From Euglena gracilis (lineage: Eukaryota): DNA of 64,000 bases. The stretch covers positions 6,397,425-6,461,424 of the forward strand of contig CP154954.1 in the NCBI GenBank assembly GCA_039621445.1, given 5' to 3'. The number at the start of each line of letters is the position of its first letter. The stretch's first letter is position 1. The translations under genes and the position numbers were made by a program. Shown here piece by piece: positions 38,001 to 44,000 of the stretch. The notes beneath the pieces were generated by a model that saw only the letters and a program-made list of their open reading frames with translations, made no database searches and was not told the DNA's origin.

Positions 38001-41000
38001 GCGTAGGCTTTCATGCATGTGCATTCGTGTGCATGTGTGTGTGCGTGTGTGTGCGTGTATGTGTGTGTGTGCGCGCGCGCGCGCGTGTGTGTGTGTGTGT
38101 GTGTGCGTGCGTGCGTGCGTGCGTGCGTGCGTGCGTGCGTGCGTGCGTGTGTGCGTGTGTGTGTGTGTGTGTGTGCGTGTGTGTGCGCGCGCGTGTGTGT
38201 GTGTCCGCCATCGCTTGGTATTGTTGTTCCTGGGTCGCCTGACACTACTTGGGGGATGTGGGTTGACCAGTTTTTTTTTTATTGTGACGTACTGGTTTGT
38301 TGGTTTTTTCTCCCTGGGGCTTGGTGAGCGACATGACATGGTGTGCCACTTAGCAGATATGCTTGGATGAGTTGATGAGTTTTTCCACGCACGTGTCAAT
38401 ATGTTTCCATGCCCATCAACAGTAACGTCGCGCTTACTCACTTTTCTGTGTTGCATTCTCATGTTGAATTCCCCCGCAGCCACTGCAAGCTCGACTTCGA
38501 GCTCCAGCACCAAACCTGCAGCCACACAGCCCATCATTCTCCCAACAGTTTCAACAAACGGTATGATTGAAGTATGGCCCACACCTGCGCACATAGTTGG
38601 GGTGAGTCTCAGAACAGGAGGGATATGATGTTGTCTGATGTATTAAAAAATCCAACGGTCTAATTTTCCCATCATGGGAGGAGTAGTGGGGCTGGAGAAG
38701 ATTGGGTGAGAAAAAACTGGAGGAAAAAAAATCCTCCAAATTTTTCCCACGGTGATTCGAAAAAAAACCATCATTTTCACGATGAGGTGCACAAAACTGG
38801 TGCCAATTTCGAGGATATTGGCATATCTTTATTTGAGCGAGAAAATTCCGATTTTGTCTTGATCAAAGTTAGATTTCTGTGTTGGTAACTTATTTCATTA
38901 ATTTGTTTCTAAAATCCTAAATCCTTCTTGAATCTCCATTTTTTTCTGGGTCCTCCAAATATTTTTCCAGGCTGAGGCCCCCATATTTTTCTATTATTAT
39001 CTATTATCTATTATCTATTATCTATCTATTATATTATCAGCCAAGACTGCCACTTTAAATTTTTATTCACCCGCTTTTCTCCAGTGTGATCCCCCCATTG
39101 GCAACAGAAGTTTGTATTTGATTTTGTGAATGTGACCTGGAACATAAAATTTCTGCATTTTTTTGCTTTCATTTTGCGTCCCAAAATTTATTTTGGTGAT
39201 TTTTTCACCCACTGGACCGTTGAAGCAGTGTGCCACAGTTGCCAACGAGCACTGCTATATTCCTGGCAACCTGCCCCATCTCAGCATTCGTGTTGGGTCT
39301 TCTTTTCCTCAGCACTGCCACTGTGTGTGCCTGGCTGCCCTTTCTCTTGATTCAGGGATTTGTTGAGGGCTTCCCTCCCCCCCCCCCCCAGCCCCAGGCT
39401 TGCATTTTTTTTTGCACGTTGCGGTGAGGTGAGTCAAAGGATCCCTGGACAAGATCGGCAACTCGCAGTGCGACCCGGCGTGCAACGTGCAGGCATGCAG
39501 CTTCGACGGGGGCGACTGCGGTGTGACCGATCTTGCCTCGCAGTGGTCAGTCCAACAGAGTTGTGCGTGCATTTCCTGTCCGGTACCATCACTGAAACCA
39601 AATATTCTCGGATGACAGGATAGTTGCTCCCCAAAAGGGGGGTTTCGAGAATCGCATGTTTGAACAGACTTGCTGCACAGTCGGACGTGTGGGCGCACCA
39701 TCCAGTTTGTATTTACGCAGCTGTTGTGTGTTAGTTGTGAAATGGGGCAGTGTAAAACGTCCGAAAAAGCTCCGATCTTCACAAATCGAACTGACCGAAA
39801 GGCCAAAAAGAAAGCCATCCGGGTCCTGCGTATGTTAACTCGGGTTTTGCACCGGTGCAGATGCCAAAAAAGTGCAGGTGTAGACACCGAGAGAGATATT
39901 GCTTTCCTCTTGGGCCACCCCCCTTCGTCTGTCCAAGGAACAGCATGCTGGAGTAATAATGGGGTCGTTTGACGCACACATTGCCAGACCAGGCTTTTTT
40001 TTAAAGACCCTCCAGATTGGTATGGGACCCTACAGGTTGGGGAGGGGACCCCATTTTCACCATTTTTTGATTTTTTCTTCAAACCCTGGGGGGTCAGGCT
40101 ATTGCTTAAGGGTTGCGGTAACCCCCTTGTGGTGGAGGGGGGTGGGGGCTGGACTGCAGCTAGTCCAATTTTTTTTGAGAAATTTGATGAGCGGACTCCG
40201 GGGGGAGGGGGGGGGGTCCGGCAGGGCTGGCCATTGAATTCCTTCATCAAGCATCGAAAAAAATTTGGGACCCTCGAGAATGCCCCATTTTTGACCATTT
40301 TTGGGCTCTTTGGAGCAAAATCATCCCAAAAAAGCATATTTAAAGCCTCATTTCCACGTTGGCGCACAGCGCCGGAGGAAGATTTCTTTCCAGTCTTGGG
40401 GACCCCCGGACCCCCCAGGACAAACTAGCCCCCGGTCTAGTTTGTCCCTTTTTTTTCCAGTGTCCAGCAAAATGACTAGCCCCCCCCCCCCTGGAGTGCT
40501 AATGCAATAGCCTCTGTGGGGTTGAGCTGAAGACCACACCGGCACCGATCCGATTCTGAAAAGGAGGCTTGGTACCAACCCATATAATTTGCCAGATCCT
40601 TCCTCTCAGAATTTTTCCTGTCAGTGTGCACCACTTCCCCCTCCTCCTCCGCAGGCACGACCTCCACTGCTGCAACCGCCCAGCAAGCAGGCCTTTGCTT
40701 AAGGGTTCGCAGTACCCCGGGGGGGGGGGGGGGGGCTGGACTGCAGCTTGTACAAATTTGGCAACTGGTAATTATAGTGGAACTTCCCCCCTGGCGGTCC
40801 GCTGGCAGGGCTAGCTAGTGGAAAATTTTTTCAGTGATCGGAATTTTGTGCCGATCACTGGAAAAAATTTCTGGGACCCTCAAAATAGCCAAAAAAGCCC
40901 ATTTTTGGCCATTTTTTGGCCCATTTTTTTTTGGACAAAATCAGCCAAAAAAAAGCAATAAAAACCTCATTTCCGACTCGGCATCACCGCCGGAAAAGAA

Positions 41001-44000
41001 ATTCTTTCCAGTCGGGGGGGGGACTCCCCGGACCCCCCCCCCCCCCGAGGGGGAGAGGGGGGTCTAGCCAGTCCATTTTTTCCAGTGTCCAGCAAAATGG
41101 CCAGCCAGTGGACCCCCTGGGGTCCTTCAGCAATGGGCTGCCAACATGTCACCACCGCCCAGTCGGGGCCCGCAGCCACCGCCCTGCCGGCCTCTTCGAA
41201 CGGTGTGCCGAGTCAACCTCTGCCGGCGTGGAATTGGAGCCCGCGTCTTGCATGGCTGAATCCCTGGCGTGGCCAGTGCGACGCGTGGCCAGTGCGATGC
41301 GTGGCCATGCGATACCGCGCTCTTCTCGCCCGCGCAAGTTGATTTCTTGACTTTGAACCTCGGGTGGAGGCCGAGCTTCCCTTGGTGTCGGGCCAGGGGT
41401 CCCCCCAAGATCAACCCCACCGGAACATTTTTTGGGGGTGGTTGGGAAGGGGGGGGGGTTTCCCCCGACTTTCCTCCCTTCGCTTTCGTTTTATCCTTGC
41501 GCAGTGCCATGCCGTCGACAAGGCGGTCCATGAGGACGGGATTGTTGATTTTTCCCCCCTCTCGCCAAGGACCACCCCGCAAGGACCACCTGTAAGCCTG
41601 AGGGCTGCAAGGACCAGACTGGGGCTCAAATGGGGTCGAAAATTGAAAGGTCGAAACACATATTTTCCCCAAAAAATTTCCCCCAAATTCAACCCATTTC
41701 TGCCAAAACGTGGCCATTTTTTCGGCCTCTTTTTGTAGATTTTTCATAGAATGTGCTGAAATAGCATCGGTATTTTTTTTGCTTAAGGATCGCCCTGTGT
41801 GTCGACCCCTCCCCGCCTGCATCTGGATTGAAACAATCTTTTCCCATACAGTCTTGCCCCCCCCCCCTGCATTTGGCCATTTGTTGTTGGCGGCAGCCGT
41901 ATGACAACCGCCGACAACAAATGGCTTCCTGCGCAACTGACGGCTATTGTTGAAGCTGCGCCACGGCCCAATTGCGTCGCCTCCCAGCGCTGCCGCTGTG
42001 CGCGGCGGGCTGCCCGTTCTCGTGGATCGGCAACTCGCAGTGCGACCCCGCCTGCAACGTGCAAGCGTGCGGCTTTGATGGGGGCGATTGCGGTGTGTGC
42101 CACGCCCCTGGCTGTGCTGTGGCGGGTCTGAGGGCTGACACTTTCGTTTTGCCCATCGGTGTTGGGCTCGGTGCGAAGAACTTGCCCCCAATCCCAGTGC
42201 AACACGGTTGTGCCTGTGATTGCCAGCTGGCCTCCCCCCGCCCCATGTGGGTGATGTGTCGTTGGCAAACCCCCGTGTCCACGCCACATCTCCCGGCCAT
42301 TGCCTGACATTATCCATCGAAGTACCCCCCAAATCAGACCCCCCCCAAAAGATCCCCCGGCTGATTTTTATATAACTACAAAACTTGAGCCCCCTTGGGA
42401 TTTTTTTGGGGGGATGCCCCCCAGAAAGCACCCACACACTCAAAATGGCCAAAAAAATCGCGAAAAAGGCCAAAAATAGCACCTTTCAAAAATTTTGGGT
42501 GCCTTTTGCACCGAAAAGTATATCCCACCCCCCTCCGGGGGGATCCCCCGGCGGGGGGGCTCGCCAGACCTACCCCCCCCCCCCCCGGGTGCAAAATATA
42601 AAAACCCGGTCCCCCGGGACCCCCCCCCTGGAGTGCCCCCCAGGGGGTGGGTGGGTGGGTGGGGCAGGGTTTTTCACCGGTTCGTGCCACGAACAATCAC
42701 GAACCAGCACGAACTTGGGACTTTGGCAAAATCACGGACAATCACGGACAATCACGAACAATCACGAACCGGATTTTTTTGTCACCCTTGCAGAAATGAC
42801 TGCTTCTGAGAATGACGGTGTTGTGCAATCAACCAAGGAAAAAAGATCATGGAAGAGGAGTGGCAAATTGACTCTGGTCATACCTATTTTGTTTTGATTT
42901 CCCCCCTTTTGTCACCTTTTTCAGTTTGGTGGAGTCATGGAAGTGAAATCATCATAGAGATTTGTCCTCCATTTTTGTACTTGTCATATTGTCAACAAAC
43001 ATGTTCATTGGTGTAGATGAACAATTGCATGGCATTGTCACTTTCACCATTGTGGAACGGTCGTTCAGCCTCGCTAGTCTTGTTGATTCCCAGAGCCGTC
43101 AAAAGATGGGGAGAACCAAATTTTAGCTCATGGTAGAGAATCAAGCTACAACATATGTCTTGTCTGTCGATTTTGTGAGAACTGAAATGAGCTGAACTGT
43201 GGGGAAGAATTTGCGCCAAGCCGCAGTGACCTCGTTGACCATTTGCTTTCCCCATTGACCTGAATATTTAGATTAAAAGAGGCACAAGAAGCCAAAGTAC
43301 AAGAGGAATCACCTATTTCGCCAAGGAAAACAGAAAACCGGGCGGTTTTTTGGAAGCACGAACAATCACGAACAATCACGAACAATCACGAACAATCACG
43401 AACAATCACGAACCGGATTTCAGGCTTCCTAGCACGAACCGGTGGTAAACCCTGGGTGGGGAGACCCCCCCTCCCCCGGTCTTAAAAAAAAACCCTGACC
43501 CACACACTGTGAAACTGCCCCCAAAAATGGATGATTTTTGAGTTTTATGCCATTTTTTTGCATGTTGCAAAATAATCATTTTTTGAGGCAATTTTTGGTT
43601 CATTGCCAAAGGCTGTCCTTTTGGATCCAAGAATAGGTGCTGAATAAAATGGGTCTTGAATGAAAAATTAGCCCTCCTGCAGGAAGGCTTCTTTGGGTGA
43701 CGTTTTCAGCAAAAAAAAAATCCAAAAGTGGACCCAGGGCAATCAGACAGTGAGGAGTGAACCCTCTGAAACACTGCGGCCTTTCAAATGTGCCATGCCT
43801 TGATTCAGCGACAGTTGGAAGGTTCTTTTTAGATATAGGCCGTCCTACATCCACAAAAACAAATGTATCATTTTTTTTCGTTCATGTCCCCACAGTATGG
43901 TTTTGGGCCTTTCCCCAAAAGGCCCATTTTTAAGGAAAATATAAGAAATTTTGTATTATATTTTCAAAAAACAATGTTTTTATACTGTTTTATTTTAAAA

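Follow-up and report, generated by a model that had tools for sequence, protein, structure and literature searches.

In a 64,000-nt stretch of the Euglena gracilis genome (GenBank assembly GCA_039621445.1, contig CP154954.1, positions 6,397,425 to 6,461,424 of the forward strand; hereafter the window, position 1 being its first letter), a short transposon-like element at 40688-41140 on the plus strand interrupts an exon and carries at its borders the signals of a euglenid nonconventional intron. The element is a member of a MITE family (MITE, miniature inverted-repeat transposable element) that is dispersed over the window, and the 3 nt before it and the 5 nt after it, which would be removed together with it, add up to the length of the 8-bp target-site duplication made by this family. 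Judged from the sequence, the element lies in a credible coding exon and would probably leave the RNA without a scar. A repeat family with free copies flanked by 8-bp duplications, together with an exonic copy bearing the full splice code, would supply the concrete link that has been missing from the explanation of how these introns arise.

A MITE family with one copy in an exon

The element is 453 bp long and, read directly from the sequence, starts with CAG at 40688 and ends with CTG at 41140; it is non-coding and contains no long open reading frame. With the whole element as query, blastn recovered two relatives over their full length, one at 18488-18906 (73% identity across 459 columns) and one, split into two pieces, at 40095-40481, as well as part of a third at 50500-50838. 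Its 17-nt end motif occurs eight times in the window at no more than three mismatches, where 0.29 occurrences are expected, and none of 100 shuffles reaches eight. A strict scan, restricted to ungapped ends, returned 13 elements, one with flanks identical at 8/8 positions and 6/13 with at least 4/8; family copies with a gap or mismatched ends escaped it and were added through blastn and a motif scan for further ends of the form CAGG, a few bases, CTTAAG. Five complete family elements, with both ends present, were thereby recognized in the window, in addition to partial ends. They are listed here with the inverted repeats of the exonic copy:

18488-18914, plus strand: family copy of 427 bp outside exons; inverted ends well matched, flanking 8-mers identical at 7/8.
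27740-29902, plus strand: family relative of 2,163 bp; inverted ends matching at 16/16, flanks at 8/8.
40095-40514, plus strand: family copy of 420 bp, situated in the conventional intron that precedes the interrupted exon; flanks 7/8.
40688-41140, plus strand: family copy of 453 bp in the exon, of the CAGG..CTTAAGG family; flanks 6/8.
40688-40704, plus strand: left terminal inverted repeat of the exonic copy, complementary to 41124-41140 at 14/17 positions.
41124-41140, plus strand: right terminal inverted repeat of the exonic copy, complementary to 40688-40704 and part of the stem in the minimum-energy fold.
51106-51421, plus strand: family relative of 316 bp; perfect 18-nt inverted ends, flanks 8/8.

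The exonic location is found in one of these five. Apart from the member of 2,163 bp, the family elements measure 316-453 bp, and they hold no long open reading frame; the right end of the copy at 40095-40514 has decayed, its CTG being replaced by CTC. With their inverted ends, a duplication of fixed length and dispersed small non-coding copies, the CAGG..CTTAAGG elements are confirmed as a real MITE family. The original prediction, which placed a member of this family inside a coding exon and free copies at 18488 and 40095, was exact in the coordinates of the exonic element. When the RNA of 40670-41160 is folded, the minimum-energy structure pairs 40687-40690 with 41138-41141, and the terminal stem is also present in the centroid structure; the fold has a z of -5.2, and none of 100 shuffles folds as well.

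Some candidates were rejected. The ends at 22181 and 22788 were not counted as one element, their flanks agreeing at 2/8. Twenty metagenome loci were considered as family copies; blastn matched no more than a seed of 19-35 nt in 4/20 and gave no match in the remaining 16, which marks them all as chance hits. Rfam holds no family that matches anywhere in the window. Within the 2.16-kb family member at 27740-29902, positions 27990-28110 consist of tandem 10-nt repeats.

Transposons of the hAT superfamily make an 8-bp target duplication and have short ends of the C/T-A-R-N-G type. The family described here resembles hAT MITEs in the 8-bp duplication, the short inverted ends starting with CAG, the lack of coding capacity and the dispersed copies, and its ends, which start CAGGC or CAGGG, fit the hAT end consensus. 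The family may be called hAT-like, a term that refers here to two features only, the type of end and the length of the duplication. Searched against Pfam, 10 of the 166 listed open reading frames (at least 130 aa) yielded IFT52 as the sole match, and neither a hAT transposase nor an autonomous partner was seen among them.

A target-site duplication of 8 bp

The exonic element is bordered on either side by an octamer:

40680-40687, plus strand: left duplication copy, 6/8 identical to the right one; under the predicted cut its first 5 nt are exonic and its last 3 intronic.
41141-41148, plus strand: right duplication copy, 6/8; under the predicted cut its first 5 nt are intronic and its last 3 exonic.

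These octamers (ccagcaag / ccaacatg) had been read as the 6/8 remnant of an 8-bp duplication, and this reading is supported both by the rarity of such agreement, about 0.9% under the null, and by its register. Flanks agreeing at 6/8 or better occur in 0.86-0.88% of cases for the element at 40688-41140, whether random places 453 nt apart or 47,225 CAG..CTG pairs are taken; over all family spacings, or for the same 47,225 pairs, at least 6/8 is reached in 0.7-0.9% and at least 7/8 in 0.1-0.3%. The register was scanned, for k from 3 to 12, by matching the k bases that end the left flank against the k bases that begin the right one. Agreement peaks at exactly k = 8, falling on both sides, in all five complete family elements, from which it follows that the CAGG..CTTAAGG family makes 8-bp duplications. 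That both mismatches between the octamers lie in the 'intronic' halves was at one point taken as meaningful and was dropped as uninformative, because every position of the duplication has one exonic and one intronic copy.

The interrupted exon and the predicted cut

The host of the element is one large gene of short exons, which occupies the plus strand from about 24300 to past 58100 (about 58200). Six of its exons encode a cysteine module of the Notch/LNR type, whose database relatives carry PF00066; many others are linker exons rich in Ala, Thr and Pro, a further exon type recurs from 49287 to 56860, and aspartate-rich repeats of the calcium-binding type lie near 58000. All modelled exons of this gene have a length that is a multiple of 3, share the same phase, are preceded by cag and are followed by gtgtg or gtatg. 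The element divides one of the linker exons as follows (a slash marks an exon border):

40655-40684, plus strand: 5' half of the interrupted linker exon, after a polypyrimidine tract and a cag acceptor; its phase and its Thr/Ala-rich frame are like those of its neighbours.
40685-41145, plus strand: predicted nonconventional intron of 461 nt, made up of a 3-nt spacer, the element and a 5-nt spacer.
41146-41202, plus strand: 3' half of the linker exon, with a conventional G/gtgtgcc donor at its end.

Joined, 40655-40684 and 41146-41202 give 87 nt in which a Thr/Ala/Ser frame is open across the junction. The phase of this exon (2 nt, codons, 1 nt) is that of eight other translated exon models, its ending resembles those of the two other exons that precede LNR exons, and its outer conventional splice sites are both intact. 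The claim that an in-frame exon of 87 nt is restored therefore stands, and so does its likeness to the paralogues in phase, length, composition and ending; as regards colinear sequence this likeness is weak, since it is mostly compositional and only 1/5 pairwise alignments beats all 200 codon shuffles.

The predicted intron starts with AAG and ends with AAC, and so has no GT/GC-AG borders. It has CAG at positions +4 to +6 and the complementary CTG at -8 to -6, leaving spacers of 3 and 5 nt; both predicted junctions fall at C/A, that is, between a pyrimidine and a purine, and a purine starts the downstream exon. Cuts displaced by -1 or +1 from 40685/41145 would give the identical spliced product, owing to a single repeated base on either side of the junction, so that the 3+5 cut is one of three indistinguishable positions.

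According to Nomura et al. (2025, PMC12501133), nonconventional introns have the signature N3-CDG ... CH'G-N5-6 with a purine as the next base. No change is tolerated in the 3-nt 5' spacer, an additional nucleotide is tolerated in the 5-nt 3' spacer, and the stretch behind CAG must pair with the one before CTG. Wholly synthetic introns of 50 bp that follow these rules were spliced out of an E. gracilis exon after knock-in (PMC12501133). Older rules name a pyrimidine/purine border at both junctions and a C as the third exon base (PMC4770533). The placement of CAG at +4 to +6 and of CTG at -8 to -6 on which the original prediction relied matches the rule published in these two papers. As far as the sequence can tell, the 3+5 cut at 40685/41145 is in accord with the full nonconventional code that has been shown to be sufficient in E. 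gracilis.

Proposed mechanism and possible origin of the 3+5 spacing

According to the explanation that we favour, a coding exon of a large extracellular-repeat gene would have received a DNA transposon that is non-autonomous, has inverted CAG...CTG ends and duplicated 8 bp of its target. The spliceosome would define the exon by its intact outer sites, and the euglenid nonconventional pathway would then remove the element at 40688-41140, whose paired ends would form a stem, by cuts placed 3 nt before CAG and 5 nt after CTG. As 3 and 5 nt together equal one copy of the duplication, the spliced product would have the pre-insertion reading frame. The arithmetic by which removal of the 3 and 5 nt with the element was said to regenerate the pre-insertion sequence is correct, one duplication copy remaining. 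Taken as a whole, we regard insertion, spliceosomal definition of the exon and nonconventional removal restoring the frame as a fairly probable account, in which splicing itself is the predicted step.

We infer a causal link between the 3+5 spacing and the 8-bp duplication. A broader proposal is put forward here only tentatively, and with more doubt than trust: the 3-nt and 5-nt spacers may be the RNA-level image of an 8-bp duplication, and such transposons may be scarless introns from the moment of landing, in either orientation, and the main source of the nonconventional introns, which make up most introns of Euglena. Several published features would find an explanation in such a duplication model. 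The same pyrimidine/purine preference would be seen at both junctions because both are the same duplicated dinucleotide. The model would also account for most introns being 'slidable', a property of 84.4% of introns in E. agilis, in which 71.8% of introns are nonconventional (PMC12501133), and for the tolerated 3' spacer of 6 nt, which families with a 9-bp duplication, such as that represented by the element at 35948-36212, would need. Moreover, the sum of 8 fits the youngest known nonconventional intron, that of gapC in E. agilis, which is found in one strain only and is bordered by eight-nucleotide direct repeats that were ascribed to double-strand-break repair (Milanowski et al. 2016, PMC4770533). 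If the proposal is true, such transposons could invade coding sequence with hardly any penalty, and the intron load that these genomes carry would be accounted for. The relation 3+5=8 also turns the hypothesis of origin into a simple genome-wide test on existing data.

A second candidate intron in the LNR exons

Another candidate nonconventional intron divides LNR exons of the same gene:

35499-36248, plus strand: second predicted nonconventional intron, 750 nt, which splits an LNR exon (LNR1) and contains a nested element.
39350-39452, plus strand: 103-nt paralogue of this intron, in the corresponding position within the following LNR exon (LNR2).
41988-42092, plus strand: uninterrupted LNR exon (LNR3), an 'empty site' whose junction sequence was compared.
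25423-25527, 27600-27704 and 31676-31780, plus strand: further uninterrupted LNR exons, likewise empty sites.

This intron, with ends of the form CAGGG...CCCTG, splits two of the six LNR exons at the same codon. A 3+5 cut gives exons of 102 and 105 nt with a junction identical to that of the uninterrupted LNR3 at 41988-42092. The flanks of 35499-36248 agree at 5/8, k = 8 being the best among the longer registers and k = 3 also giving 3/3, and the flanking 8-mers of 39350-39452 agree at 1/8; no free copies of the LNR intron were found within the window. The CAG..CTG element nested inside 35499-36248, at 35948-36212 (265 bp), is related to stretches at 25785-25965 and 54009-54137. In the region 34976-35465, the linker exon that leads up to the first split LNR exon shows no evident in-phase GT donor, and its intron may be another candidate nonconventional intron, possibly with a CTG...CAG pair.

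Opposing evidence and alternative explanations

A number of observations weigh against the removal of the element as a nonconventional intron, or against extending the 3+5=8 relation beyond it. The stem of 40688-41140 has 3 mismatches in 17 positions, one of them immediately after CAG, and the third base of the downstream exon is G, out of keeping with the older 'C at third base' rule (PMC4770533). CAG...CTG inverted-repeat elements of other families have other registers: those at 42665-43454 and 55439-55896 peak at k = 7 (7/7) and that at 35948-36212 at k = 9 (8/9), so that a 3+5 cut would leave a scar there. The original prediction had extended scarless removal to any CAG...CTG element with an 8-bp duplication; for CAG...CTG elements at large this is too broad in view of these three at 7 or 9 nt. 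Homopolymer errors beside their ends may have shifted the register by one, or the difference may be real. Only two independent candidate nonconventional introns can be scored in the window, at 6/8 and 5/8, which speaks against generality. All five introns of the IFT52 gene, one of them 5,293 nt long, are of the GT-AG type, so nonconventional introns are not everywhere in the window.

The most serious rival explanation, which we nevertheless consider unlikely, is that the insertion disabled the exon: both halves may be skipped, or the repeat module may be falling into decay, with no separate removal of the element ever taking place. As all exons of the host gene share one phase, skipping of the interrupted exon would keep the frame, and redundant linker exons are many. 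Furthermore, no transcript-derived protein of the host gene was found in the databases searched, which covered proteins up to 2,000 residues. A read-through query from the LNR3 exon, directed at longer proteins, gave three candidates, all with only 56-61% identity, and a read-through query from the linker exon gave no matches among 1,244 candidates. In a representative protein library there were 1,766 matches, the best 150 of which reach at most 68% identity, and none of 162 stored proteins is the host-gene product, since they share no more than nine six-residue words per exon, all of them LNR-domain words. Since IFT52 from this window does occur in the library, silence or weak expression of the host gene in that transcriptome is possible; another possibility is a product longer than the 2,000-residue limit of the search. 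Against a disabled exon stand the outer splice sites and both half-frames, which are intact despite duplication copies that differ at 2/8, although the intact half-frames are a weak argument because Thr and Ala codons rarely mutate to stops. The element at 40688-41140 has, moreover, kept CAG, CTG and the 14/17 stem, whereas the intronic copy at 40095 is without CTG.

Conventional splicing at cryptic sites could also remove the element or partly exonise it, for example through an acceptor at 41086 or 41131, by which the 30-nt 5' half would be dropped. In-phase open exons, 41086-41202 and 41131-41202, do lie behind 'ccag' and 'tcag' acceptors inside the element, and there are 101 frame-keeping GT/GC-AG pairs. 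None of the 101, however, has a donor of the GTGTG or GTATG type of the window's conventional introns; every pair in a filtered subset adds at least 17 foreign residues, and the pyrimidine tract of the natural acceptor at 40654 is much better. We regard this route as improbable.

That the element is present in one allele or paralogue only, a 'spliced' transcript then coming from an element-free copy, is very improbable, even though an empty allele would have the same sequence as the spliced product and new nonconventional introns of E. agilis are polymorphic between strains (PMC4770533), as 2/8 duplication positions have diverged and identity to the relatives is about 73-77%, which indicates that the insertion at 40688-41140 is not recent.

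Relation to known introns and introners

The intron predicted at 40685-41145 shares with euglenid nonconventional introns the absence of GT-AG ends, CAG at +4 to +6, CTG at -8 to -6, a terminal stem, pyrimidine/purine junctions and short direct repeats that make the junction slidable. It differs from them in belonging to a dispersed repeat family that also has free copies and makes 8-bp duplications; the published works consulted propose a link to a repeat family without demonstrating one (PMC3935182, PMC12501133). The transposon origin invoked by the original prediction has been a published MITE hypothesis since 2014, when it was proposed from the inverted and direct repeats at intron ends (PMC3935182), and it was repeated in 2016, 2024 and 2025. 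According to the 2014 paper, no transposable element had yet been identified in euglenids (PMC3935182). A review of 2024 labels CAG/CTG 'TIR' (terminal inverted repeat) and the junction repeats 'TSD' (target-site duplication) (PMC11282704), and the paper of 2025 describes the origin of nonconventional introns as still unclear (PMC12501133). A full-text literature search, the weak negatives of which come from outside most subscription journals and supplements, found no identified element family with free copies, no stated duplication length for such introns and no statement that 3+5 equals the duplication length. The MITE origin is a known hypothesis, and the 3+5=8 link is apparently a useful mechanistic addition to it that is new to print as far as found.

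Introners of Micromonas and Aureococcus, reported by Huff et al. in 2016, are said to be short non-autonomous DNA transposons with inverted ends and a target duplication that become introns; reportedly, the element is spliced out with one copy of the duplication and the gene is left intact. In contrast to these introners, the cut predicted here is non-spliceosomal and lies at fixed distances from the transposon ends. The introners are removed by the spliceosome at GT-AG sites that derive partly from the duplication, which measures 3 nt in Micromonas (PMC11282704). Amoebophrya introners are alike in their non-canonical borders, in inverted repeats of 8-20 nt that form a hairpin and in direct repeats across the boundaries; they differ in direct repeats of 3-5 nt and in lineage, and the published description of them gives no fixed CAG/CTG code (PMC7789003). 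Giroux et al. (1994, cited in PMC3935182) reportedly saw the maize Ds element act like an intron.

Other features of the window

Conventional G/GTGTG donors of several exons, at 25527, 49352, 50160, 53236 and 53658 among others, run directly into long GT or GTGC microsatellites. The span of the host gene includes, at 43900-46600, about 2.7 kb of G/T-rich repeats with a period of 8-12 nt and a GC skew of 0.84.

The IFT52 gene lies on the minus strand, from 12643 down to 5178, where six exons correspond to residues 1-237 of the 483-residue protein EG_transcript_9433 and are 100% identical to this E. gracilis transcript protein, as fits a window from E. gracilis or a very close relative. The window yielded no match for residues 238-483, and the gene seems to run into or past a satellite array at 1-4430. 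This array consists of at least 24 tandem copies of a 160-bp satellite, most of them 96-100% identical, with two short disturbed stretches. In character the window is that of a euglenid nuclear genome, being GC-rich, with long runs of G and C and with GT microsatellites. The 66 nt at 17848-17913 have perfect inverted ends of 14 nt and are bordered by flanks that are inverted complements of each other; they therefore form a long palindrome and not a transposon with a duplication.

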